Part shown: positions 5,329 to 51,645 of the stretch, in pieces | Numbering within the stretch: position 1 is the stretch's first letter | How the letters are laid out: each line of letters starts with the position of its first letter | NCBI GenBank assembly: GCA_022340345.1 | Contig: JAJDOE010000014.1 | Location: 152-64,151 of the forward strand | DNA: 64,000 nt | Reading direction: 5' to 3' | From: Gammaproteobacteria bacterium | GTDB lineage: Bacteria; Pseudomonadota; Gammaproteobacteria; HyVt-429 | The notes under the pieces: model-generated | What the model saw: only the letters and a program-made list of their open reading frames with translations | The model's database searches: none | Told to the model about the DNA's origin: nothing | Made by a program: the position numbers and the translations under genes

Positions 5329-6711
5329 ATGGGAGTAAAGCGTCGGGGGGGGCTGCGGCAACTGCGCGCGGCAGCAGTAATGCTGGCGCTGGCCAGCGTG
5401 GCCGCCTGTACCACCACCACTTCGCGCCAGGTCTCCAGCGTTCCGGATTCCGTGCCCGTGCCCGTGACCCAGGCCGTAGCGCCCCCGGTCCGGACCGCGA
5501 CGCCATCCGTTCCCGCGCCCATCGTGCATGCCGACCTGTGGGCACGCATTCGTGCCGGCATGCACCTGGCGGACATGGACAACAAGCAGGTGCGGGAGTT
5601 CGAAGACTGGTACGCGAACCGCCCGCGATACGTGGACAACATGTTCCGGCGCAGCCGGCTGTACCTGTACGACATCGTCGAAGAAATTGAACGCCGCAAG
5701 CTTCCAATGGAACTGGCGTTGCTGCCGGCGATTGAGAGCGCCTACCGGCCTACCGCCTATTCCCGGGCGCGCGCGGTTGGCCTTTGGCAGTTTATTTCCT
5801 CCACCGGTCGCCTGTACGGGCTGAAGCAGGATTGGTGGTACGACGGCCGACGCGACTCGCTGGCGGCGACCCGCGCCGCCCTCGATTACCTGGAAAAACT
5901 CCACGCCGAGTTCGGCGACTGGCGGCTGGCGTTGGCGGCCTACAACGCGGGAGAACGACGGGTGGCCCGGGCCCGCGAAGCCAATGCCCGCCGCGGCGGC
6001 CCAACGCACTACGAGTCGCTGCAACTGAAGCGGGAGACCCGCCACTACGTGCCCAAGCTGATGGCGGTGGTGCACATCGTGCGAGATCCGCAACGCTTCG
6101 GACTGGAACTCCCGGACTTCCCGAACCAGCCGGAATTTGCCGTAGTGGATGCCGGTGGCCAGATCGACCTGGGAGTCGCTGCCCGACTGGGTGGCATTTC
6201 GGCGGACGAACTGTACGCCCTCAACGCCGGCTACCTGCGCTGGGCCACGCCCCCGGATGGTCCGCACAAGTTGGTCGTGCCGCGGGAAAACAGTGCGTCC
6301 CTGGCTACCGCCCTCGCCGACCTGCCGCCAAAGGACCGCCTGCGCTGGGCCCGCCACCACGTGCGGCAGGGTGACACCCTCGGGCACATCGCGAATCGCT
6401 ACGGCATCTCGATATCCGCGCTGCAGCAGTCCAACCACCTGCGCGGCAACCTGATCCATGTCGGACAGGACCTGGTGGTTCCGTTGTCCAGCCGCAACAC
6501 GGCTCGCCAGGTTGCGTCCCTGCCGCGAGCGCCGAAAGAATCCGATACGGCGGGCAACCGCAAGCGACTGGTGCATACCGTCCAGCGGGGCGACACCCTT
6601 TGGCAGATTTCCCGCCAATACCGCGTCGGAGTGCGCCAACTCGCAAGCTGGAACGGCCTGCACCTGAGCGACACTTTGCGCCTGGGCCGTGGCCTGGTCA
6701 TCTGGTATTAG
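5329..6711 (+). CDS. mltD: Membrane-bound lytic murein transglycosylase D with C-terminal LysM domains
   Basis: Lipoprotein signal (LALASVAAC). SLT domain (ELALLPAIESAYRP…GLWQF…LAAYNAG). Two LysM repeats (HHVRQGDTLGHIANRYGIS; HTVQRGDTLWQISRQYRV). gloB-mltD synteny as in E. coli. Confidence 0.9.
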   Translation: MGVKRRGGLRQLRAAAVMLALASVAACTTTTSRQVSSVPDSVPVPVTQAVAPPVRTATPSVPAPIVHADLWARIRAGMHLADMDNKQVREFEDWYANRPRYVDNMFRRSRLYLYDIVEEIERRKLPMELALLPAIESAYRPTAYSRARAVGLWQFISSTGRLYGLKQDWWYDGRRDSLAATRAALDYLEKLHAEFGDWRLALAAYNAGERRVARAREANARRGGPTHYESLQLKRETRHYVPKLMAVVHIVRDPQRFGLELPDFPNQPEFAVVDAGGQIDLGVAARLGGISADELYALNAGYLRWATPPDGPHKLVVPRENSASLATALADLPPKDRLRWARHHVRQGDTLGHIANRYGISISALQQSNHLRGNLIHVGQDLVVPLSSRNTARQVASLPRAPKESDTAGNRKRLVHTVQRGDTLWQISRQYRVGVRQLASWNGLHLSDTLRLGRGLVIWY

Positions 6712-6848
6712 CGATACCGCGTTGCGAACCTGACCAGCGACCACAGCGGAGCAAAGCGCTGCGCAGCTTCTTCGCGGTCGGAACGGAATGAATGCTGCCG
6801 GACGGACCGGCGAATAGCGGCGTGCCGTCCCTGGTGAACCGCGGCCCG

Positions 6849-7295
6849 TCAGGGACGGGTATAGGGAGCGTGGATCACCCGCGCCAGTATCCGCGCATGT
6901 TCCCGCCCATTCTCGGCACGGTAGTAGTTCCGTCGCCGCGCAATCTCGCGAAACCCAGCCGAGCGGTACAGCCGGGCCGCCGCTCGATTTGATGCACGTA
7001 CTTCCAGAAACAGAATGTGCACCCGCAGGTGGTCCGCCAGTTCCAGCACCTGTTCCAGCAACTGGCGCCCCAGGCCGGCACCCTGGTGTTGTGGGTCAAT
7101 ACAAATGTTTAGCAGGTGTCCCTCGCCGGCCGCCACGGACAGGATCGCGTAGCCGATGACCTCGTCCTGCAGTCCGGCGAACACACGACATACGTAGCCC
7201 ACCCGCAGGCAGTCCCGAAAGATTCCCTCCGACCAGGGGAACTGGTAGGCCCTCTCCTCGATCTCGATGACCGCTGCGAGGTCCGCGTCGCACAT
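6849..7295 (-). CDS. rimI: Ribosomal-protein-alanine N-acetyltransferase (GNAT)
   Basis: IEIEERAYQFPWSE…LLNICIDPQHQGAGLGRQLL…LEVRASNRAAARLYRSAGF matches the RimI core. Start at the internal Met (MCDADL) avoids a 40-nt overlap with udg; the upstream ATG at 7373 is possible. Confidence 0.75.
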   Translation of the reverse strand: MCDADLAAVIEIEERAYQFPWSEGIFRDCLRVGYVCRVFAGLQDEVIGYAILSVAAGEGHLLNICIDPQHQGAGLGRQLLEQVLELADHLRVHILFLEVRASNRAAARLYRSAGFREIARRRNYYRAENGREHARILARVIHAPYTRP

Positions 7296-7333
7296 ATCGC
7301 GCAGGCAGACGCCCTCGTGGACCGGGACCGCGC

Positions 7334-8062
7334 TCACCCCAGATTTTCCCGCGCCAGGCAGAGGTCCGCCCACGTCTTGCGCTTTTCTGCCGGATTGCGC
7401 AGCAGGTAGGCGGGGTGGTAGGTCACCACCAACGGGCAGTCGTAGGGGCCGTAGCGGTGCACGCGGCCCCGCAGGCGACTGATCGGCTCGCTGCTCTTGA
7501 GCAGCGATTGCGCCGCAAAACGTCCCAGCGCGATGATCATGCGTGGCTCAATCAGCGTCACCTGCCGGTGCAGGTATGGCTCGCAACAAGCCACCTCGTC
7601 TCCCATCGGATCGCGGTTCTCCGGCGGCCGGCACTTGAGCACGTTGGCGATGTATACCTGGCCACGCTCCAGATCCAGCGCCGCCAGCATGGCCGTAAGC
7701 AGCTGCCCCGCACGGCCTACGAACGGCTCTCCCGTGCGGTCCTCTTCGGCGCCCGGCGCCTCGCCGACGAACAGCCAGTCTGCACGGACGTCGCCGGTTC
7801 CGAAAACGGTATTGTGCCGGCTGCGGTGCAACTCGCAGGCGGTGCAGGCGGGTACCCGTTCCGCGAGTTCTTCCCAGCCGAGCCGCTCCACACCAGCGTG
7901 GGTGGCAGTGGGGACTTCCGGCCGAGGGGCCGGCCCGGGCCGCGCGGCAGCGCCTGCTGACGAATCGGTTGCCGGCGGCTGGCCGGCGTCCGCCCGCGGC
8001 GCCCGTTGGCGCCAGCGGCGGATGCCCAGCGCCGACAGGTACTGTCCGCGTGCCCCGGTCAT
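7334..8062 (-). CDS. Uracil-DNA glycosylase, family 4 (Fe-S UDG)
   Basis: [19 protein letters not shown]…[26 protein letters not shown]…CRPPENRDP…HPAYLLRNP are the family 4 UDG motifs. Confidence 0.85.
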
Positions 8063-41599: not shown

Positions 41600-43612
41600 A
41601 TGCGTCGTATCCTCGTTACCAGCGCCCTGCCCTACGCCAATGGCCCGATCCACATCGGCCACATGGTGGAACACGTGCAGACGGATATCTGGGTGCGTTT
41701 TCAGCGCCTGCGCGGGCACGAGGTTTGGAGCGTATGCGCCGACGACACTCACGGCACGCCGATCATGCTGCGCGCCGAGGCGGAAGGAATAACGCCCGAG
41801 CAACTGATCGAGCGCATGCACGCCGAACACCTGCGCGATTTCCGCGACTTTGGCATTTCCTACGACAACTACCACTCCACCCACTCGCCGGAGAATCGGG
41901 AACTGTCCCAAGACCTGTACCGGCGCCTGGACCAGGCGGGACTGATCAGTCGCCGGGTGATCGACCAGTTCTACGATCCGGTGCGCGAGATGTTTCTTCC
42001 GGACCGCTACATCCGCGGTAGCTGCCCGCGTTGCGGAACCGAGGACCAGTACGGGGATTCCTGCGAAAACTGCGGCGCGACCTACTCACCCACCGAACTC
42101 GGCAACCCGGTATCGGTGCTCTCCGGCGCCACGCCGGTACGACGGGAATCCGAACACCACTTCTTTCGCCTGGGCGAAGCGGAATCCTTCCTGCGCGAGT
42201 GGACCACCGGCAAGGGTCGCCTGCAGCCGGAAGCGGCCAACAAGCTGGACGAGTGGTTCGATGCCGGCCTGCGGGACTGGGACATCAGCCGCGATGCGCC
42301 CTACTTCGGTTTCGAGATTCCCGACGCGCCAGGCAAGTTCCTGTACGTGTGGCTGGATGCCCCGGTGGGGTACATGGCCAGCTTCCGCAATCTGTGCGAG
42401 CGGGAAAAAGGCCTGGACTTTGATTCCTGGTGGGCGCCGGGATCGGATGCGGAGCTGTACCATTTCATCGGCAAGGACATCCTTTATTTCCATGCCCTGT
42501 TTTGGCCCGCCACCCTGCATTTTGGCGGCTACCGCACGCCCACCGGCGTAAACGTGCATGGTTTCCTCACCGTGGACGGCCAGAAAATGTCCAAGTCCCG
42601 GGGAACCTTTATTACGGCGCGCGAGTACCTCAACCATCTGGACCCGCAGTACCTGCGGTACTACTTCGCCGCCAAACTGAACGAGCATATCGAGGACATC
42701 GATCTCAACCTCGATGACTTCGTGATGCGCGTCAACAGCAATATTGTTGGCAAGTACGTGAACATCGCCAGTCGCAGCGCCGGGTTCATCAACAAGCAGT
42801 TTGACGGCAGGCTGGCCGACGAACTCGACGCGGAAGGCCGGCAACTGCTCGACCGCGGCCAGGGGCTGGCGGAGGAAATCGCCGAGGGCTACGAGACCCG
42901 CCGGTTCGGCGAAACCATGCGCCGCATCATGGACCTCGCCGACGAGGCCAACGAATACATCAATCGCAACAAACCCTGGGAACTGGCGAAGCAGCCGGGG
43001 GCGGAACTGCGCCTGCAGCAGGTCTGCAGCACCAACCTGGAGATGTTCCGTCTGCTGACCCTCTACCTGAAGCCCGTGATCCCGGGAATCGTCGAGGCGG
43101 CGGAGCAGTTTCTGAATATTCCGGCCCTGAACTGGGCGGATGCATCCCGTGCCATGGGGGCACATACCATTGCCGGATACCGGCACCTCGCCCAACGGGT
43201 GGAAACAGACAAGGTTACAGCCATGGTGGAAGCCAGCAGACCGAAGCAGACTACGGACCGTACAGCCAAAGACGCGGACCCGCGGCACATCGGTATCGAG
43301 CAGTTCACGGACGTGGACCTGCGAATCGCACGGATCGTGGTCGCTGAACCGGTGGACGGCGCCGACAAGTTGCTGCGCCTGCAGCTGGACGTGGGCGAAC
43401 TGGGCGAACGCCAGGTGTTTGCCGGAATCAAGCAGGCCTACCCGGCGGAAGCTCTCGCCGACCGGCTGGTGGTGCTGGTGGCCAACCTGGCGCCGCGCAA
43501 AATGCGATTCGGCGTTTCCGAGGGCATGGTGCTGGCGGCGGGCCCCGGGGGCGCGGAGATTTTCCTGCTGGCGCCGGACAGTGGTGCGCAACCCGGAATG
43601 CGCGTCAAATAG
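41600..43612 (+). CDS. metG: Methionine--tRNA ligase (with C-terminal EMAP/tRNA-binding domain)
   Basis: [25 protein letters not shown] (HIGH)…Zn knuckle [18 protein letters not shown]…KMSKSRGT…; aligns end-to-end with E. coli MetG. Start at 41600, not the upstream ATG at 41459. Confidence 0.96.
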
Positions 43613-43622
43613 CGGGTTCACC

Positions 43623-45143
43623 GACCGGGAAATGATTTCGCACGTGAAAAAAGTCTACCTGGAAACATTTGGCTGCCAGATGAACGTGCTCGACAGCGAG
43701 CTGGTGCTGGGCGCGCTGGAGGGTCGCGGGTACCAGCGTACCGGCCAGCGGGACGAAGCGGATGTGGTGTTGTTCAACACCTGCTCGGTGCGCGCGAACG
43801 CCGAGCACAAAGTCTACGGTCGCCTGGGCGAGCTAAGCCATCTCAAGCGCAAGCATCCGGAGGTCGTGGTGGGCGTACTGGGTTGCATGGCCGAACGCGA
43901 AGGCGCAGACCTGCTGCAGCGTTTCCCGCAGGTGGACCTGCTGGTAGGACCCGGCGAACTCGACCGTGTTCCGGACCTCATTGCTGCATCGCGCGACGGC
44001 AATTCGGGACCGCAGCAAGCGCTTGCCGGTGACCGTGCCCGACGCAGCAGCACCCTGGATGCAGCGGGGGACAACCTGGAACGCCTCGACCTGTCCCGCT
44101 CCATGGATGCGGTGCAACGCCACGGTTCGGCATATGTTCGTATTACCCGCGGCTGTAACAAGTTCTGCAGCTACTGCGTGGTGCCCCGCACCCGCGGTGC
44201 GGAAATCCACCGGCCCCCGGATCACATTGTGGACGAGTGCCGCCGTCTGGTGGATGCGGGGGTAGTGGAAATCACGCTGCTGGGCCAGACCGTCAATCAC
44301 TACCGATTCGATCATGGAGCCAGCATTGTGGTCGCAGGCGTGGTCCAGCCCCAGGTGGGCCCCGGCGGCGGAGCCTTTACCCGCGCGGACAGCAGCTTCA
44401 ACGTCGGGCGCAAACTCACACGTTTCAGCGATCTGCTCGCCCGCATCCACGAGGAAATACCCCAACTCCAGCGGCTGCGTTTCGTCACCAGCTTTCCGAG
44501 GGATTTCGGGGACGACATCCTCCAGGTCATGGCGGACAGCGAACGCATTTGCAACTACCTGCACCTGCCGGTGCAAAGCGGATCGGATCGGGTGCTCCGG
44601 CGAATGAACCGGGGCTACAGCGTCAGCGAGTACCGGGAACTGGTGGCGCGGGCGCGCGCTCTGGTGCCGGGAGTGACCATTGCCAGTGATTTCATTGTCG
44701 GATTCCCGGGCGAGGACGAATCGGACTTCCAGCAAAGCATGGACCTGGTGCGGGCCTGCGGCTTCAAGAACAGTTACGTCTTCAAATATTCGGAACGTCC
44801 CGATACGCCCGCCGCCGGCCGCCTTGCGGACGACGTTCCGGAAGAAGTAAAGAAATCGCGCAACCACCGGTTACTTGCGGTGCAGGCCGAAGTCTCCACC
44901 GCGGTGCACCGCCAGCACCTGGACCGCACGGTGCCGGTACTCGTAGAGGGGGTCAGCCCCCGGGGAAATCCCGAAGCCACCCGCACACAGCTATCCGGTC
45001 GCACGGTTGGCGACCTGATCGTGCTTTTCGAGGGATCCACGGACCTGGTCGGGCACATCGTTCCGGTGGCCATCCACGAAGCACGCCAGCTTGCCCTGCA
45101 CGGTGCGGTAGCGGCGCCGGCCGAGGGCCCGGGCACCCCGTGA
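43623..45143 (+). CDS. MiaB-family radical-SAM methylthiotransferase (tRNA/ribosomal MTTase; subfamily unassigned)
   Basis: N-terminal MTTase domain (VYLETFGCQMNVLDSE…LFNTCSVR); radical SAM CNKFCSYC; C-terminal TRAM. Carries a Gly/Pro-rich insertion (VVAGVVQPQVGPGGGAFTRADSS) inside the rSAM core. Starts 10 nt after metG. Confidence 0.8.
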   Translation, partial: DREMISHVKKVYLETFGCQMNVLDSELVLGALEGRGYQRTGQRDEADVVLFNTCSVRANAEHKVYGRLGELSHLKRKHPEVVVGVLGCMAEREGADLLQRFPQVDLLVGPGELDRVPDLIAASRDGNSGPQQALAGDRARRSSTLDAAGDNLERLDLSRSMDAVQRHGSAYVRITRGCNKFCSYCVVPRTRGAEIHRPPDHIVDECRRLVDAGVVEITLLGQTVNHYRFDHGASIVVAGVVQPQVGPGGGAFTRADSSFNVGRKLTRFSDLLARIHEEIPQLQRLRFVTSFPRDFGDDILQVMADSERICNYLHLPVQSGSDRVLRRMNRGYSVSEYRELVARARALVPGVTIASDFIVGFPGEDESDFQQSMDLVRACGFKNSYVFKYSERPDTPAAGRLADDVPEEVKKSRNHRLLAVQAEVSTAVHRQHLDRTVPVLVEGVSPRGNPEATRTQLSGRTVGDLIVLFEGSTDLVGHIVPVAIHEARQLALHGAVAAPAEGPGTP

Positions 45144-45775
45144 GCCCGAAAAAACGCCGCGAATTTTTTGCAAGACTGCGCGCGGAAGAACCGCAACCCG
45201 CAACCGAACTTCACTACGATTCGCCATTCCAGTTGCTGGTGGCGGTGATGCTCTCGGCGCAGGCCACCGACCGCAGTGTCAACGCCGCCACTGAAAAACT
45301 CTTTGCGGAGGCCGCCACGCCCCAGGCCATTCTGGACCTGGGGCTGGCGCGCCTGAAGAAACACATCCAGACCATCGGCTTGTTCAACACCAAGGCCGAC
45401 AACCTGCGCAAGACCTGCCGGCTGCTCATCGAGCGACACGCCGGCCAGGTACCCCGCACCCGGGAGGAGCTCGAGGCCCTGCCGGGCGTCGGCCGCAAGA
45501 CCGCCAACGTGGTGCTCAACACCGCCTTTGGCGAGCCCACCATCGCGGTGGATACCCACATTTTTCGTGTCGCCAACCGCACCGGACTGGCCCCCGGCAA
45601 GACCGTGCGCCAGGTGGAGGACGCGCTGCTGAAGGCCGTACCGCCCGAGTTTTTGCACAACGCCCATCACTGGCTGATCCTTCACGGCCGCTACACCTGC
45701 CTCGCCCGCAAGCCGCGTTGCGGCGCCTGCGTGGTTTTTGACTTGTGTGCGTATCCCGATAAAGTTGAGCCATGA
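45140..45775 (+). CDS. nth: Endonuclease III (DNA glycosylase/AP lyase)
   Basis: GTG start overlapping the MTTase stop. HhH-GPD (LPGVGRKTANVVL) and a 4Fe-4S cluster (CLARKPRCGACVVFDLC). Confidence 0.93.
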   Translation: MSPKKRREFFARLRAEEPQPATELHYDSPFQLLVAVMLSAQATDRSVNAATEKLFAEAATPQAILDLGLARLKKHIQTIGLFNTKADNLRKTCRLLIERHAGQVPRTREELEALPGVGRKTANVVLNTAFGEPTIAVDTHIFRVANRTGLAPGKTVRQVEDALLKAVPPEFLHNAHHWLILHGRYTCLARKPRCGACVVFDLCAYPDKVEP

Positions 45776-46863
45776 ACGTGGCTGCCACTGGGCTGAGTTT
45801 CGGCCTGCATGCCGAGCGCGATCACGCCGAGCGCGCGGTATCGCAGGCTATGGAGCGAAGTGGGCTGGAACGGGCCAATGCGGTCATCCTGTTTCTTAGC
45901 GGCGAATATGCCGCCAATCCCACCCCGGCGGTGCGTGCCGCCGCCCGGGCCGCGGGCTGCACCCAGGTAGTGGGCTGCACCGGCAGCGGTCTGCTCACCG
46001 ACCAGGAATGGGTGCTGGACAGCCCCGGTGCCGCCGCCATGGTACTCGGCGGCGGGGCGCGCCTGCAGCCGGGTCTGCCGGATGAAGGCGGCTCGGTGCT
46101 CAGCCTTTGTACACCGTATGGCATCGATGCGGAGTGGCTGGCGGCGCCGGTGGCGCGTATCGGCGCGGTATCCACCGACCTGCTGGGCCAGGGCCCTTTC
46201 GCCGTGTGGGGCGGGGGCCGGGTCTCCGACCATGGGCGCACCGAGGCCCGCTTTACCGGCGTACGCGACGTGCTGCGCACCGCCCAGGGCATCCGCGCCC
46301 TGACCGCTCCCATCGAGGTGGCCGCGGTGGAAGGCTTCGAATTGCTGCGGCTGGGAAACTACCCGGCCCTCAATGTGCTGGTACAGTCCCTGCCGCGGGG
46401 TGTCCAGGAACTGGAGCGGGTACCGTTTCACTTGCTCATCAGCGGTGTGACCTTTGGCGATCCGGATACCGCCATCCGGGATGGCCGCTTTCGCCTCAAT
46501 CACATCATGGCGGCGGACCCGGAAAACCGCTCCATCACGCTGGCCCAGGCCCTCAATCCCGGGGAGCGCCTGTTTTGGGCAATTCGCGATGCCCTCAGCG
46601 CCGAACAGGCCTTTCGCACAACGGCGGAACAGGCCCACGAGGCCCTGCAGGCGGATCCGGATTTCGCCCTGCTGTTTCCCTGCGTGGCCCGCGGGCCATC
46701 GTTTTTCGGAAACCGGGACCGGGACATCGAGGTCATGCGCCAGATTTTCCCGGGGCTGCCATTCATCGGCTTTTACGGCAACGGAGAAATTGGCCCGCTC
46801 AACGGGGAGAATCACCTGCACCAGTACAGCACCGTGCTCGGCTTGTACCACGCGCTGCAGTAA
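45772..46863 (+). CDS. FIST sensor-domain protein (FIST_N + FIST_C, stand-alone)
   Basis: 363 aa with no output domain; sequence consistent with the FIST N/C architecture (…AVILFLSGEY…VVGCTGSGLL…FPCVARGPSFFG…IGFYGNGEIGP). ATGA overlap with the nth stop. Confidence 0.7.
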   Translation: MNVAATGLSFGLHAERDHAERAVSQAMERSGLERANAVILFLSGEYAANPTPAVRAAARAAGCTQVVGCTGSGLLTDQEWVLDSPGAAAMVLGGGARLQPGLPDEGGSVLSLCTPYGIDAEWLAAPVARIGAVSTDLLGQGPFAVWGGGRVSDHGRTEARFTGVRDVLRTAQGIRALTAPIEVAAVEGFELLRLGNYPALNVLVQSLPRGVQELERVPFHLLISGVTFGDPDTAIRDGRFRLNHIMAADPENRSITLAQALNPGERLFWAIRDALSAEQAFRTTAEQAHEALQADPDFALLFPCVARGPSFFGNRDRDIEVMRQIFPGLPFIGFYGNGEIGPLNGENHLHQYSTVLGLYHALQ

Positions 46864-46905
46864 ACGAGCACCGAAACTTTTGCCCATCCGGGCAGTCACT
46901 AAGGC

Positions 46906-46925
46906 ATTGGTACGTAGCGCCGTAC
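46906..46925. promoter_or_regulatory. Palindrome TGGTACG-N6-CGTACCA 40 bp upstream of bufA (candidate operator)
   Basis: Perfect 7-bp arms in the 102-bp FIST–bufA intergenic region; a GGAG RBS lies 10 nt before the bufA ATG. Confidence 0.3.
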
Positions 46926-46965
46926 CACATGCCCCCAACAAACCAAAACAACGGAGACACCTCAG

Positions 46966-47229
46966 ATGAAGAACGCGAACAAACTGATCGGAACGGCTAT
47001 CGCCGGCGTACTGGCCCTGGGCGGCACGAGCGCCATGACCACCGCTACCGCCGCGGCACCGGAAATTCAGAAGTGCTACGGCGTGGCCAAGGCCGGCAAG
47101 AATGACTGCCAGACTGTCAACTCCGCATGCGCAGGCACCTCCAAGACCGACGGCCAGAAAGACGCCTGGATCTACGTCCCCAAGGGCACTTGCGAAAAGC
47201 TCGCCGGCGGCTCTACCTCCAGCAGCTGA
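46966..47229 (+). CDS. bufA: DUF2282-family precursor peptide (BufA1-like bufferin RiPP precursor)
   Basis: 87 aa with signal peptide MKNANKLIGTAIAGVLALGGTSAMTTATAAA. Core CYGVAKAGKNDCQTVNSACAGTSKTDGQKDAWIYVPKGTCEKLAGG has 4 conserved Cys. Confidence 0.85.
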   Translation: MKNANKLIGTAIAGVLALGGTSAMTTATAAAPEIQKCYGVAKAGKNDCQTVNSACAGTSKTDGQKDAWIYVPKGTCEKLAGGSTSSS

Positions 47230-47230
47230 T

Positions 47231-48103
47231 TTGCCCGATTCGGACACAACGTCCGCCCGGACTGCAGACCCGATCCCCGCGCGTGCGGGGATCGGGCTGC
47301 GGGCCGACCACTATGAAGATTTGCTCAGCCAGCTCCCGCCGCTGGCCTTTCTCGAAGTTCACAGCGAGAATTATTTCGGCGGCGGCCGGCCCCTCGATTT
47401 CCTGGAACGCCTGGCGGAGCACTATCCGATCAGTTTCCATGGCGTGGGCCTGTCACTGGGGTCCTGCGACCCGTTGAGTACTGCGCACCTGCAACAGATC
47501 GCTGATCTGGATGCACGCTTCCAGCCCGTTTTCCTGTCCGAGCACCTTTCCTTCAGCAGCGCCGGTGGGGTGTTCACCCACGACCTCGTGCCACTGCCCT
47601 ATACCGAGGAGGCAGTTGCCCATTTCGCGTCCCGCATCGCCCAGGTCCAGGACCACCTGGGACGACGAATCCTGGTAGAAAATGTCTCCTGCTACCTGGA
47701 ATACGCCCATTCGAGCCTCAGCGAAGCGGATTTCGTCGCCGCGGTGGCGGAACAGGCCGACTGCGAAATCCTGCTGGACGTCAACAACATCTTCGTCAAC
47801 GCCAGCAACCATGGTCACCGGGCGGAGGATTTTCTGGAATCCATCGTCCCCGAGCGCGTCGCCGAAATTCACCTGGCGGGATTCACGCGCAACCGTTTCA
47901 CCGATGGAGAAATCCTCATCGACACCCACAACCAGCGGGTGGCCCCGGCGGTATGGGAACTGTATGCCAGGACCGTCCGGCGTCTCGGGCCCCGGGCCAC
48001 GCTAATCGAATGGGATACAGACCTTCCGCCCCTGTCGGTACTGCTCGACGAGGCCGAATTGGCGAATCGCATCCAGGACGAAGCCCGTGCTCTCGTTGCC
48101 TGA
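47231..48103 (+). CDS. bufB: MNIO (DUF692, MbnB-like) multinuclear non-heme iron oxidase, BufB-like
   Basis: GIGLRADHYEDL…FLEVHSENYF…ISFHGVGLSLGS…LSEHLSF…LVENVSCYLE…LLDVNNIFVNASNHG…EIHLAGF are DUF692 motifs. The start is inferred as TTG 47231 directly after the bufA stop (290 aa); the alternative ATG 47102 overlaps bufA by 128 nt. Confidence 0.85.
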   Translation: MPDSDTTSARTADPIPARAGIGLRADHYEDLLSQLPPLAFLEVHSENYFGGGRPLDFLERLAEHYPISFHGVGLSLGSCDPLSTAHLQQIADLDARFQPVFLSEHLSFSSAGGVFTHDLVPLPYTEEAVAHFASRIAQVQDHLGRRILVENVSCYLEYAHSSLSEADFVAAVAEQADCEILLDVNNIFVNASNHGHRAEDFLESIVPERVAEIHLAGFTRNRFTDGEILIDTHNQRVAPAVWELYARTVRRLGPRATLIEWDTDLPPLSVLLDEAELANRIQDEARALVA

Positions 48104-48863
48104 ACTGCAGAAACAACTCACCGAAACCCTCTACGGCGGCGAACCGCCGGAGGAACTGCTGCGGCGGGTACTGGCTAACGGCCTGGACCCGGCGCGTCGT
48201 TTGCAGGTCTACCGCAACAACACCTTCAGCAACCTGACCGGCGCGCTGCGCGCGGTCTACCCGGTCATCGACCGCCTGGTCGGCGAGGCGTTCTTCGACG
48301 AGGCAGCACGACAGTACATCCCGAAGCAACCCTCCCTCAGCGGCAACCTCCACGATTTTGGCGCCACCTTCGCCGCTTTTCTCGGCGACTATGCGCACGC
48401 GCAAAGCCTGCCGTACCTGGCGGATGTGGCGCGCCTGGAATGGGCCTACCACCGGGCCTTCCATGCGGTGGATCATGCGCCCCTGGATCTGCAGGCGCTT
48501 TCGCAGGTATCCCGCGACAAACTGGACCGGCTGGTTTTCTTCCTGCATCCGTCGGCTACCCTGATCCACTCCCGCTGGCCGATCATCACCATCTGGCAGG
48601 CCAACCGGGACGAAACCGGGAACGAGCCGGGGGAGATCAGCCTGGATAGCGGCGCCTGCATGGCGCTGGTCATCCGCCGCGGTATGGACGTTTTTTTCGA
48701 GTCGCCACCGGGGCCGGAATTCACACTGCTGCAAAAGATCGCCGCAGGAGAGAACCTGGGGGCCGCTACCAGGGCGGCGCTGGCTGCCGGAGCAATTGAC
48801 CTGGAAGACGTATTGCAACGCCATGTCACGTGTAAGACAGTGACCTCGTTCACGGTCCTGTAA
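48087..48863 (+). CDS. bufC: DUF2063 partner protein (BufC-like, RRE-type)
   Basis: GTG start overlapping the bufB end by 17 nt; LPELQKQLTETLYGGEPPEELLRRVLANGLDPARRLQVYRNN is a typical DUF2063 N-terminus. Confidence 0.85.
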   Translation: MLSLPELQKQLTETLYGGEPPEELLRRVLANGLDPARRLQVYRNNTFSNLTGALRAVYPVIDRLVGEAFFDEAARQYIPKQPSLSGNLHDFGATFAAFLGDYAHAQSLPYLADVARLEWAYHRAFHAVDHAPLDLQALSQVSRDKLDRLVFFLHPSATLIHSRWPIITIWQANRDETGNEPGEISLDSGACMALVIRRGMDVFFESPPGPEFTLLQKIAAGENLGAATRAALAAGAIDLEDVLQRHVTCKTVTSFTVL

Positions 48864-48902
48864 TAGCGGCCATTTGCAACACCAACGGGAGCAACCCGCA
48901 CT

Positions 48903-49379
48903 ATGAAAAAACTGCTGAGTACCGCCTGTGGCATTGCCAAAGTTGTTACGCCTCGCCTGGACCAACTCGCTCCGGTGGCCGACCTGCTGATCCGGGTGAT
49001 GGCCGCCAAATTTTTCTGGGATTCGGCGCTCACCAAGCTGACGCTGAATTGGGAATTGCCCTTCATTCACATGAACCCCAGCACGCTGATTCTGTTCCAG
49101 TACGAATACCAGGTGCCCCTGTTGCCATCGAGCGTTGCCGCCTACATGGGTTCCGGGGTGGAACTGATTTTTCCGGTGTTGCTGGCCATCGGCCTTGCCG
49201 GGCGACTCAGCGCCTTCGTGCTGTTCGGTTTCAACATCGTGGCGGTTCTCTCCTACCCGGGGCTGAACGCGGCCGGCCAATTCCAGCACCTGCTGTACGG
49301 AGTGATGCTGTTATTGCCACTGTTCCGCGGTCCCGGCCTGATCTCGGTGGATCACCTTCTCAAACAGCGTTGCAACTGA
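48903..49379 (+). CDS. doxX: DoxX family membrane protein
   Basis: …LLIRVMAAKFFWDSALTKL… has 4 TM helices (PF07681-like); fourth gene of a BUF1-type operon. Confidence 0.8.
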   Translation: MKKLLSTACGIAKVVTPRLDQLAPVADLLIRVMAAKFFWDSALTKLTLNWELPFIHMNPSTLILFQYEYQVPLLPSSVAAYMGSGVELIFPVLLAIGLAGRLSAFVLFGFNIVAVLSYPGLNAAGQFQHLLYGVMLLLPLFRGPGLISVDHLLKQRCN

Positions 49380-49396
49380 AGCACCCCGACCCGAAA

Positions 49397-50359
49397 ATGA
49401 GCGGTCCCGCCCCGTCCTTCGCGGCAACCTTGCGTGCCAACGGCCTGCCACCGCTGGTGCGCGCGCCGCTGCAAACGCTGCAGATCAACGTGGGACGGCG
49501 CTGCAACCAGGCCTGCCATCACTGCCACGTGGACGCGGGACCGAAACGCCCCGAGGTAATGACGGCGGAAGTCGCGCGACGGGTGGTGGACTGGGCGCTG
49601 GCGGCAGCGGTCACCGAAGTCGACATCACCGGCGGCGCCCCGGAACTCAACCCGGAATTTCGCTGGATGGTGGACACCTTGCGCACGGCCGGCGTGCAGG
49701 TAATTTCCCGCTGCAATCTCACGGTGCTGTTCGAGCCCGGCCAGCAGGACCTGGCGGAATGGTACGCCGGGCGCGAGGTACGGCTGGTCTGCTCGCTGCC
49801 CTGTTATACCCGGGACAATACCGACGCCCAGCGGGGTGACGGTGTATTCGATAAGAGTATTGCCGCGCTGCAACTGCTGAACCAGCACGGCTATGGTGCG
49901 CAACGGCAACTGGACCTGGTCTACAACCCGGGCGGGGCATTTTTGCCGCCGGACCAGCAGGCACTGGAGCGGGAGTACCGGGAACGGCTGCTGGCGGATT
50001 TCGGAGTTCGCTTCTCACGCCTGCTGGCGCTGGCCAACCTGCCGATCAACCGTTTTGCCCACTTCCTGGAACGCAGCGGCCAGCGGGAAAGCTATCAGCT
50101 CCTGCTGCAGGAAAGTTTCAATGTCGCCACCGTGGACGGCCTGATGTGCCGGCAGCTGCTAAGCGTGGACTGGCTGGGCCAGGTGTTCGACTGCGATTTC
50201 AACCAGATGCTCGACCTGCCGCTGGGGGGAACCCGCCGCTACCTGTGGGACCTGGACCCGGCGACCCTGCCGGGTAAGCCGGTGGCGGTGGATGCGCACT
50301 GCTTCGGCTGCACCGCGGGAGCGGGGTCGAGCTGCGGTGGCTCATTGGTGGCATCCTGA
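49397..50359 (+). CDS. ArsS-family radical SAM / Cys-rich (DUF3641-like) protein
   Basis: LQINVGRRCNQACHHCHVDAGPKR (CX3CX2C); C-terminal HCFGCTAGAGSSCGGS Cys cluster (Cys, not Sec). Resembles the arsenosugar rSAM ArsS / TIGR04167 family. Begins 17 nt after doxX. Confidence 0.8.
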   Translation: MSGPAPSFAATLRANGLPPLVRAPLQTLQINVGRRCNQACHHCHVDAGPKRPEVMTAEVARRVVDWALAAAVTEVDITGGAPELNPEFRWMVDTLRTAGVQVISRCNLTVLFEPGQQDLAEWYAGREVRLVCSLPCYTRDNTDAQRGDGVFDKSIAALQLLNQHGYGAQRQLDLVYNPGGAFLPPDQQALEREYRERLLADFGVRFSRLLALANLPINRFAHFLERSGQRESYQLLLQESFNVATVDGLMCRQLLSVDWLGQVFDCDFNQMLDLPLGGTRRYLWDLDPATLPGKPVAVDAHCFGCTAGAGSSCGGSLVAS

Positions 50360-50472
50360 CGAGTACCACGAGTCAGGATTCCGATTCCTCGCATGATTGC
50401 GCCTCAGCGCAATCATGGCGATGCAAAAGCAATTCCAACTATCGCCATGATCGCGCCGCAGACGCAATCATG
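50353..50472. repeat. Cluster of overlapping REP-like palindromes (core CATGATYGCGC…GCGCAATCATG) between convergent rSAM and dnaJ
   Basis: ATCCTGAC-11 nt-GTCAGGAT over the rSAM stop; perfect CATGATTGCGCctcaGCGCAATCATG (50392-50417); ATCATGGCGAT-18 nt-ATCGCCATGAT (50412-50451); degenerate copy CATGATCGCGC-7 nt-GCAATCATG (50446-50472). Confidence 0.7.
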
Positions 50473-50511
50473 CGAAGGCAAGGACACCCGGCCCATCAAA
50501 TGGCCCGGGCA

Positions 50512-51645
50512 CTAGGATACGAGATCCTCAAAAAACCGCTTGATCTTGTCACTCCACCCCTGGGCCCGCGGATTGTGACGTGAGCCCCCTTCACCGAAAG
50601 AATCCTCCAACTGCTGGAGCAAGTCTTTCTGCTCCTGCGTCAGGTTAACCGGAATTTCCACGTTGATACGGCAGTACAGGTCTCCGGTGTGGCCGCTGCG
50701 CACGCTGCGCACACCCTTGCCACGCAAACGGTAAAGCTTCTCGCTCTGGGTTTCCGGCGCCACTTTGAGGCGCGCCCGGCCATCCAGGGTCGGAATCTCC
50801 AGCTCACCGCCCAGCGCCAGGGTGGCGAAACTCACCGGCATTTCGCAATACAGGTCGTCACCGTCGCGGCGAAAGATCGGGTGGTCTTTGAGGCTGATTT
50901 GGACGTACAGGTCGCCCGGTGGCACGCCGTGCTCGCCGGCCTCGCCCTCTCCCGCCAGGCGCACCTGGTCGCCGGTATCCACACCCGCCGGTACTTTCAC
51001 AGAAAGGGTCTTGGTATGCCGGGTACGGCCCTGGCCCTGGCAGCTTTCGCAGGGATCACTGATGACCTGTCCGCGACCGCGACAATTGGGACAGGTCTGC
51101 TGCACGGAGAAAAAACCCTGTTGCATGCGCACCTGGCCGTGTCCGCCACAGGTCTGGCAGGTGGTCGGCGAGGAACCGGCCTTGGCGCCACTGCCACTGC
51201 AGGTCTCACAACTCTGGTAGGTGGGCACCCGAATCTTGACTTCGGTGCCGCGCACCGCGTTCTCCAGATCCAGTTCCAGGTTGTAGCGCAGGTCCGAGCC
51301 CCGCGCCTGACCACCCCGGCCGCCGCGACGACCAGCGCCGAAGATATCGCCGAAGATGTCACCAAAGATGTCGCCGAACCCCGCTCCACCGCTGGAATGA
51401 AACCCACCGCCCATGGAGGGGTCCACGCCGGCATGCCCGAACTGGTCATAGGCGGCACGCTTCTGGGGGTCCTTCAGGGTCTCAAAGGCTTCTTTCGCCT
51501 CCTTGAATCGTGCTTCCGAAGCTTCATCACCGTCGCTGCGATCCGGGTGGTGCTTCATCGCCAGGCGCCGGTACGCCTTTTTCAGTTCGTCATCGGAGGC
51601 ATTGCGCGGCACGCCCAGGGTTTCGTAGTAATCGCGCTTCGACAT
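50512..51645 (-). CDS. dnaJ: Chaperone DnaJ
   Basis: J domain (HPD); G/F region ([13 protein letters not shown]); four CxxCxGxG Zn-finger repeats. Confidence 0.97.

Follow-up and report, generated by a model that had tools for sequence, protein, structure and literature searches.

The short open reading frame (ORF) at positions 46966 to 47229 of the analysed DNA raises the question of whether it encodes the precursor of a bufferin and, if so, to which type this precursor belongs and how it may be matured, exported and regulated. Among the ribosomal peptides modified by MNIOs, bufferins form the largest family known, and they provide a widespread defence against copper in the periplasm. The ORF lies in a stretch of 64,000 nucleotides of a gammaproteobacterial contig, which was analysed as a whole and is referred to here as the window. 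We consider it very probable that this ORF, hereafter bufA, encodes a Buf1-type bufferin precursor, that it is the first gene of a bufA-bufB-bufC-doxX operon, and that its product works by the mechanism described for bufferin 1 of C. vibrioides. A bufferin operon of this kind is recognisable from raw sequence. The family, its chemistry and the operon were described in 2024-2025, and the exact protein is already public with its family label; the locus is not a discovery. The value added here is modest and resides in a lineage-specific candidate promoter of the ECF type and in a conserved downstream gene for an ArsS-like radical SAM enzyme.

The bufA gene and its family

The bufA gene maps to the forward strand at 46966-47229, stop codon included. 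It starts with an ATG at 46966, contains 87 codons and ends with a TGA at 47227-47229, as originally predicted for an ORF of 87 aa. No alternative in-frame start occurs between the preceding stop codon and this ATG. The encoded product is MKNANKLIGTAIAGVLALGGTSAMTTATAAAPEIQKCYGVAKAGKNDCQTVNSACAGTSKTDGQKDAWIYVPKGTCEKLAGGSTSSS. A ribosome-binding site with a GGAG core is found on the same strand at 46953-46956, 9 nt before the ATG, and related loci also carry GGAG at an equal distance from the bufA start. The site had been described as strong; its presence and its recurrence in relatives are evident, but the adjective is generous for a core of only 4 nt.

The length of the ORF is in itself not significant, because DNA with 64% GC is full of such frames: 96 ORFs of 50 aa or more lie within or extend into the 14 kb around bufA. 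That bufA is a genuine gene is evidenced by its codon usage (GC content of 0.50, 0.58 and 0.81 at the three codon positions, hence a GC3 of 0.81), by a Pfam match with E = 6.7e-24 and by 5,948 homologues, detected at E <= 1e-3 among 90%-identity clusters. At the same threshold, the family comprises 1,853 clusters at 50% identity.

The Pfam match is to PF10048 (DUF2282), the current name of which is BufA1. The score is 84.1 bits against a gathering cutoff of 22.4, and the match covers profile positions 2-52 of 53. The proposed DUF2282/BufA1 identity of the precursor is thereby supported, the similarity to DUF2282 being well above the cutoff. With 87 aa, the protein falls inside the range of 80-120 residues reported for the BufA1 family (PMC11626156). 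An identical protein (P0001) is deposited in NCBI as ‘MAG: DUF2282 domain-containing protein [Gammaproteobacteria bacterium]’, and a JGI metagenome contig with an identical bufA lists PF10048:BufA1, MbnB_TglH_ChrH and HvfC_N in its gene table. Judged by sequence, bufA is a canonical, ordinary member of the BufA1 family.

An NCBIfam scan of the bufA product returned no BufA1 match, and its one hit, to the BufA2 model NF050166, stayed below threshold (28.9 bits against a cutoff of 60). BufA2 proteins (Buf_6/12Cys) are similar in several respects: they too are exported, Sec-dependent, Cys-rich precursors modified by an MNIO and a DUF2063 protein, they carry thiooxazoles at the central cysteines and an outer disulfide, have a similar predicted fold and bind copper. 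However, they feature six or twelve conserved cysteines, in contrast to the four found here, and the buf2 cluster of C. vibrioides lacks doxX. Membership in BufA2 was rejected on the basis of the score and of the presence of four cysteines only.

Gene organization of the locus

The bufB gene, located on the forward strand at 47231-48103, encodes a maturase of the MNIO (DUF692) type of 290 aa, which matches NF050167 (MNIO_BufB) with 357.4 bits, above the cutoff of 310, and PF05114 with 342.6 bits. The likely start codon is a TTG located one base past the bufA stop, and the same start is used in the JGI call on the identical contig; an alternative, longer ORF starting from an ATG at 47102 would overlap bufA by 128 nt. 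The protein scores below the cutoffs of the models for HvfB (252 against 360) and MbnB (TIGR04159; 61 against 325), and the ApyH and ChrH models are likewise below theirs.

The two following genes are also on the forward strand. The bufC gene (48087-48863), which shares 17 nt with the 3' end of bufB, encodes a DUF2063 partner protein of 258 aa (PF09836, 83.9 bits). The only related NCBIfam model, HvfC, gives 55.7 with the BufC protein, below the cutoff of 142. The bufD/doxX gene (48903-49379) encodes a membrane protein of the DoxX family of 158 aa (PF07681, 45.5 bits). It is followed by a gene for an ArsS-like radical SAM/DUF3641 protein at 49397-50359, again on the forward strand, which starts 17 nt past the doxX stop and is assigned by TIGR04167 (417.6 bits, cutoff 300) and PF12345 (174 bits).

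To place this arrangement among relatives, we refer to 80 loci obtained by a genome scan (L006-L085) from named genomes, such as those of Vibrio, Photobacterium, Arenicellales, Methylomonas and Methylomirabilota. In these loci bufB is found 77 times, bufC 74 times and doxX 70 times, and the order after bufA is almost always this one; loci missing some of the genes are mostly cut by contig ends. Since the genes flanking the operon vary by lineage, bufA-bufB-bufC-doxX can be regarded as the conserved unit. The same four genes were taken as such in a published survey of bufferin biosynthetic gene clusters (PMC12452194).

The founding member of the Buf1/DUF2282 group is BufA1 of C. vibrioides (CCNA_03363/CC3254; PMC11626156). 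It belongs to the same Pfam family, likewise combines a Sec signal peptide with four conserved cysteines, and heads an operon with the same order of genes, i.e., bufA, MNIO, DUF2063 and doxX. The two loci differ in their surroundings: the sigF-nrsF pair, adjacent in C. vibrioides, is not adjacent here, where an ArsS-like gene follows doxX instead.

When the family profile was run on all six frames of the 64 kb window, bufA was the single DUF2282 match, and no other credible exported Cys-rich ORF was found at the locus. The claim that bufA is the sole plausible substrate gene therefore holds. Repeats of the EGKCG, GKCG or KCG type are absent from every frame of the window. Such repeats mark the EGKCG captophorins (oxazolin HvfA, fontiphorin and gonophorin), which depend on the same pair of enzymes (MNIO and DUF2063/PME1), are often accompanied by DoxX, and likewise bear 5-thiooxazoles and bind copper (10.1101/2025.11.18.689057). 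In contrast to them, the bufA product has no such repeat and is predicted to be an ordered mini-protein; the missing repeats and the sub-threshold HvfB score of bufB led us to reject an assignment to the EGKCG/oxazolin group. Methanobactin (MbnA/MbnB/MbnC) was also considered, as it too is a copper chelator with Cys-derived heterocycles made by a maturase of the MNIO superfamily. It differs in that the modified groups are oxazolone/thioamide groups, the precursor has a leader peptide instead of a Sec signal and the product is secreted to acquire copper. Membership was rejected in view of the low MbnB score and because the precursor joins a Sec signal peptide to a DUF2282 core.

Cysteine core, and predicted export and maturation

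The cysteines of the bufA product are residues 37, 48, 55 and 76, spaced as C-x10-C-x6-C-x20-C. The spacing given earlier (x11, x6 and x21) was a miscount, yet the accompanying claim that the cysteines are conserved is well supported. All four are invariant in an alignment of 30 close homologues. In a broader alignment of 99 sequences, which spans down to about 38% identity, the sole invariant columns are C37, C48, C55, G74 and C76. The x10/x6/x20 core is present in all 85 bufA orthologues derived from the loci, in which additional cysteines are confined to signal peptides or over-extended N-termini.

The spacing varies somewhat at larger distances. In 150 representatives of divergent clusters, x10/x6/x20 occurs in 121 sequences and x10/x7/x20 in 11, and the exceptions to both are mostly truncated or fused fragments. 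A few DUF2282 members, for instance P0202, lack the central cysteines. As the x6 form prevails in the representatives, bufA has the majority variant. In C. vibrioides BufA1, the core cysteines are at positions 12, 23, 31 and 52, which corresponds to x10/x7/x20 (PMC11626156). The interval between CysII and CysIII therefore differs between the two proteins (x6 here, x7 in BufA1), as compared via the published cysteine numbering. A tryptophan precedes CysIV by 8 residues in both (W68 here, Trp44 in C. vibrioides). The predicted core is shorter here (57-58 aa, as opposed to 68), and CysI is its residue 7 or 8, compared with residue 12 in BufA1.

The N-terminus has the features of a Sec signal peptide, predicted to comprise residues 1-29 (46966-47052, forward strand). 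Positively charged residues (K2 and K6) precede a hydrophobic stretch (residues 7-20, where Kyte-Doolittle windows of 9 residues peak at 2.3), which gives way to a run of small residues (T-A-T-A-A-A-P); A-x-A motifs are present at residues 27-29 and 28-30. The signal peptide claimed originally is thus recovered by charge, hydropathy and A-x-A heuristics and by a helix at 2-22 in the AlphaFold model. Cleavage is likely to occur after A29 (ATA|AAPE) or after A30 (TAA|APE). The site is ambiguous, as P32 comes after the best-aligned A-x-A. A proline at +1 blocks signal peptidase I, and as P32 would take this position if the cut were made after A31, that site is disfavoured. A lipoprotein signal was rejected: no cysteine is found within the hydrophobic region or close to where it ends, so that a lipobox is missing.

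The predicted core peptide (47053-47226, forward strand) would consist of 57-58 aa, is rich in Lys, Gly, Ala, Ser and Thr, and has a pI of about 8.5. The calculated monoisotopic mass would be 5879.786 Da for a core of 58 aa and 5808.749 Da for one of 57 aa, and that of the unmodified tryptic peptide NDCQTVNSACAGTSK is 1497.619 Da. An AlphaFold2 model of the bufA product, built on the 99-sequence alignment, has a mean pLDDT of 87.9, with the lowest values at residues 21-30. In addition to the N-terminal helix, it features two strands (34-38 and 68-72) and a short helix (76-78), and places C37 on the first strand and C76 at the short helix. The predicted fold matches the published BufA1 model, in which a two-stranded sheet and a short helix are joined by a strand-to-helix disulfide. 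When the PDB was searched with a sequence profile made from the family alignment, the best E was 0.24, and a Foldseek comparison of the model with the PDB gave nothing at E <= 0.001. Because both searches came back empty, there is no solved relative to anchor the fold.

The maturation pathway can be outlined by homology to bufferin 1. In C. vibrioides, BufB and BufC are necessary and sufficient for conversion of CysII and CysIII to 5-thiooxazoles (-4.03 Da each), DoxX is dispensable for the modification, and a CysI-CysIV disulfide is formed, the mature peptide being 10 Da lighter than the core (PMC11626156). Installation of 5-thiooxazoles by MNIOs that depend on DUF2063 proteins was confirmed by a second group, which suggested captophorins as a name for the class (10.1101/2025.11.18.689057). 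By homology, the 87-aa precursor would be made in the cytoplasm, where the MNIO BufB and its DUF2063 partner BufC would turn C48 and C55 into 5-thiooxazoles through four-electron oxidations, with a loss of 4 Da each. On the forward strand, the corresponding codons are at 47107-47109 (C48, equivalent to Buf1 Cys23) and 47128-47130 (C55, equivalent to Cys31). The Sec signal peptide would then carry the modified peptide to the periplasm, and signal peptidase I would cut after A29 or A30. The released core of 57-58 residues may fold into two beta-strands and a short helix, stabilised by a disulfide predicted between C37 (codon at 47074-47076) and C76 (codon at 47191-47193), the latter being the homologue of Buf1 Cys52. 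DoxX, conserved as it is, would not be needed for the modification. The expectation of a loss of 4 Da per modified cysteine consequently holds, by homology, for CysII and CysIII and not for all four residues: two thiooxazoles plus the C37-C76 disulfide should lower the total mass of the mature core by 10 Da (10.078 Da).

Buf1 binds one copper per peptide in a 2N+2S sphere, with KD values of about 6e-15 M (Cu2+) and 7e-20 M (Cu+), and the buf1 operon confers protection from copper on C. vibrioides and on E. coli alike. By homology, the two thiooxazole thiols of the bufA product and two nitrogens would hold one copper ion very tightly, and sequestration of excess periplasmic Cu(I)/Cu(II) would protect the cell. 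Modification, export, cleavage site and copper binding are all attributed to the bufA product on this homology.

Several other readings of the locus were weighed against this one. Long spurious ORFs are common in a window with 64% GC, and bufA might be one of them, the real gene being an antisense ORF of 518 aa (45691-47247). The antisense ORF, however, overlaps a well-supported FIST gene on the forward strand, and bufA has a Pfam match, thousands of homologues, a high GC3, a conserved ribosome-binding site and conserved synteny on the forward strand; Pfam match, homologues and synteny effectively refute the chance-ORF explanation. Older annotations point to a membrane protein (‘predicted integral membrane protein’ was the old Pfam label, and ‘uncharacterized membrane protein’ is the legacy Pfam/JGI annotation), and an uncleaved N-terminal signal anchor could hold a Cys-rich domain in the periplasm. 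This would agree with the single hydrophobic helix modelled at 2-22 and with P32 blocking one candidate cleavage site. A membrane anchor is nevertheless very unlikely, given that the hydrophobic core spans no more than some 14 residues and is followed by ATA|A and TAA|A, which are typical of signal peptidase I sites, and that the homologous signal peptide of C. vibrioides mediates export of a beta-lactamase reporter and was found to be removed at the predicted position (PMC11626156). It is equally improbable that bufA encodes an exported DUF2282 protein that escapes the MNIO and binds metals through plain disulfides or thiols, with bufBC inactive or acting elsewhere. Sizeable fractions of DUF2282 genes are not adjacent to an MNIO gene (PMC12452194), and the existence of family members devoid of central cysteines would fit such a role. 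At this locus, in contrast, bufB begins one base past the bufA stop and bufA is the sole candidate substrate, the BufB protein scores above its equivalog cutoff, both central cysteines are invariant, and the gene order is kept in about 70 of the 80 loci.

A further reading leaves the family assignment intact and concerns the function. The bufA product could be a genuine bufferin-type peptide with a role other than copper buffering, directed at another thiophilic metal or metalloid, or at redox or sulphur stress. In C. crescentus, sigma-F mediates induction of the buf1 operon (CC3254-CC3257) in response to chromate, dichromate and cadmium (PMC3511200). The survey of bufferin clusters speculates on other metals and stresses and notes fusions between MerC and bufferins (PMC12452194), and in the lineage examined here an ArsS-like radical SAM gene follows doxX. 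Among the window genes scanned, no copper gene is nearby. These observations are countered by data on the characterised members: reporters of C. vibrioides bufA1 answer to Cu and not to Fe, Zn or Mn; Buf1 selected Cu from a metal mixture, with an affinity that is femtomolar or tighter; and every characterised product of a DUF2063-dependent MNIO binds Cu (10.1101/2025.11.18.689057). Moreover, the core residues of the bufA product show high conservation across the family. We judge a non-copper role to be unlikely, and favour the Buf1-type assignment with copper as the probable ligand.

Upstream region and the ArsS-like gene

The gap upstream of bufA measures 102 nt, and no Rfam element or sigma-70 promoter is detectable in it. 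An Rfam search over 45000-51000 gave no match at E <= 1, and a scan for sigma-70 promoters and terminators near bufA returned nothing relevant, with counts at the level of shuffled sequences. The gap contains a candidate promoter on the forward strand (46873-46897), made up of GAAAC (46873-46877) and GTC (46895-46897) separated by 17 nt. It begins 10 nt past the stop of the FIST gene and about 70 nt before the bufA ATG; from its position, transcription is predicted to start near 46903-46906, leaving a leader of about 60 nt. We infer from its form that GAAAC-N17-GTC is a promoter for an ECF sigma factor.

The motif is found at an equal distance from bufA in seven loci (L006, L011, L038, L049, L055, L062 and L071), which retain GAAAC and GTC although their spacers have diverged. 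Of 83 upstream regions, 10 contain the motif, where about 0.95 would be expected. Within the window alone, its frequency is not significant (2 matches, as opposed to 1.78 expected); because this count is near expectation, the case for the candidate promoter is its positional conservation across loci. The motif differs from the sigma-F site of C. crescentus, GTAACC-N16-CGAA. The predicted leader of about 60 nt is similar to the mapped start of transcription of the C. crescentus operon, which is at -61.

Of the loci with the motif, L011 shares gene context with the window locus and carries, between bufA and bufB, genes for an ECF sigma factor and a zf-HC2 anti-sigma factor and a second copy of bufA. 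Homologous sigma/anti-sigma pairs are present upstream of bufA in L030 and L069, but without the strict motif. When the L011 ECF sigma and anti-sigma proteins were used as tblastn queries, no homologue was found anywhere in the window. Twenty further genes of the window that were scanned are housekeeping genes or have no Pfam match, and none is a sigma factor, NrsF or copper-homeostasis gene. Since the scanned genes include no copper gene and the L011 sigma/anti-sigma pair has no homologue, the local context gives no pointer to copper. Transcription of bufA would probably depend on an ECF sigma factor encoded outside the window. Regulation by an ECF sigma/anti-sigma pair is frequent in Buf1 clusters, although it does not define them.

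The published survey of bufferin clusters makes no mention of DUF3641 and reports neither the candidate ECF-type promoter nor the downstream ArsS-like gene (PMC12452194). In the genome scan, an ArsS-like gene follows doxX in 10 of the 80 loci, all from MAGs of Arenicellales or of other or unclassified Gammaproteobacteria. These 10 loci have metG-nth upstream in common and do not share dnaJ-dnaK downstream. At the window locus, the position of the gene may reflect inherited synteny, or the gene may be a passenger specific to the lineage or serve the operon as an accessory. It is unlikely that the Buf1 operon of Arenicellales and related MAGs constitutes a distinct variant, in which a non-SigF promoter of the ECF type would be controlled by an ECF sigma factor with a zf-HC2 anti-sigma factor in place of NrsF, as embedded in L011, and a gene for an ArsS-like enzyme, probably co-transcribed with doxX, would be added to the conserved unit; if it did, the radical SAM enzyme might introduce a further modification into the bufferin or provide a link between the system and the chemistry of metalloids.

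Upstream region and candidate promoter of bufA

The gene directly 5' of bufA (46966-47229, forward strand) encodes a protein with FIST_N and FIST_C sensory domains. It spans positions 45772-46863 on the forward strand and has a 4-nt overlap with the nth stop. FIST homologues also lie 5' of bufA in the fetched loci L006, L011, L017, L029 and L038. Further upstream, a MiaB/RimO-like methylthiotransferase gene (43140-45143, forward strand), featuring UPF0004 and Radical_SAM domains, is located between metG and nth. Among the fetched loci, L001, which is the identical JGI contig, gave the sole tblastn match to this gene, although metG and nth are retained 5' of bufA in several related loci. This distribution suggests a local insertion or rearrangement 5' of the buf operon.

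The motif GAAAC-N17-GTC, found at positions 46873-46897 of the forward strand, about 70 nt upstream of the bufA ATG, looks like an ECF-type promoter. The motif is present at the same distance from bufA in L006, L011, L038, L049, L055, L062 and L071, loci in which the spacers diverge in sequence. Overall, 10 of 83 upstream regions carry it, versus approximately one expected. The sigma-F site of C. crescentus, GTAACC-N16-CGAA, is different from this candidate promoter.

In L011, a relative with a closely similar gene context, three genes on the forward strand (6305-7535) separate bufA from bufB. They encode an ECF sigma factor (Sigma70_r2 and r4_2 domains), a zf-HC2 anti-sigma factor and a second DUF2282 precursor. 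In contrast, the Caulobacter anti-sigma factor is of the NrsF/DUF1109 type. Homologous sigma/anti-sigma pairs are located 5' of bufA in L030, which carries two bufA copies, and in L069.

The bufA-bufB junction and database annotation

Taken at its greatest length, the bufB ORF begins at ATG 47102, which would give a 128-nt overlap with bufA. Between the bufA stop codon and the MNIO domain, the sole in-frame start is TTG 47231. Its position, one base past the bufA TGA, suggests that bufA and bufB are coupled by termination-reinitiation; automatic annotation based on the longest ORF would miscall the bufB start.

The window bufA product is a canonical DUF2282 protein with no BufA1 match in NCBIfam release 20, and its sole match, to the BufA2 model, is sub-threshold (28.9 vs a cutoff of 60). 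Consequently, the NCBI-style label remains "DUF2282 domain-containing protein" rather than bufferin. The window BufC protein similarly scores below the HvfC cutoff.

Genes downstream of doxX and variation in the DUF2282 family

An ArsS-like radical SAM/DUF3641 gene (49397-50359, forward strand; TIGR04167, 417.6 bits) starts 17 nt past the doxX stop codon. The same succession is observed in 10 of the 80 genome-scan loci, all from Arenicellales or Gammaproteobacteria MAGs. ArsS-like radical SAM/DUF3641 proteins are not among the bufferin cluster components reported in the published survey (PMC12452194).

Variants of the DUF2282 family include proteins P0202, P0229, P0121, P0128 and P0150. P0202 is a tandem DUF2282 protein, each repeat of which features CysI and CysIV only and lacks the central modified Cys, while P0229 lacks CysIV. 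The two-domain tandem architecture is found in several DUF2282 representatives. Gene order also varies: doxX is placed between bufA and bufB in L074, and bufBC is located 5' of bufA in L070.
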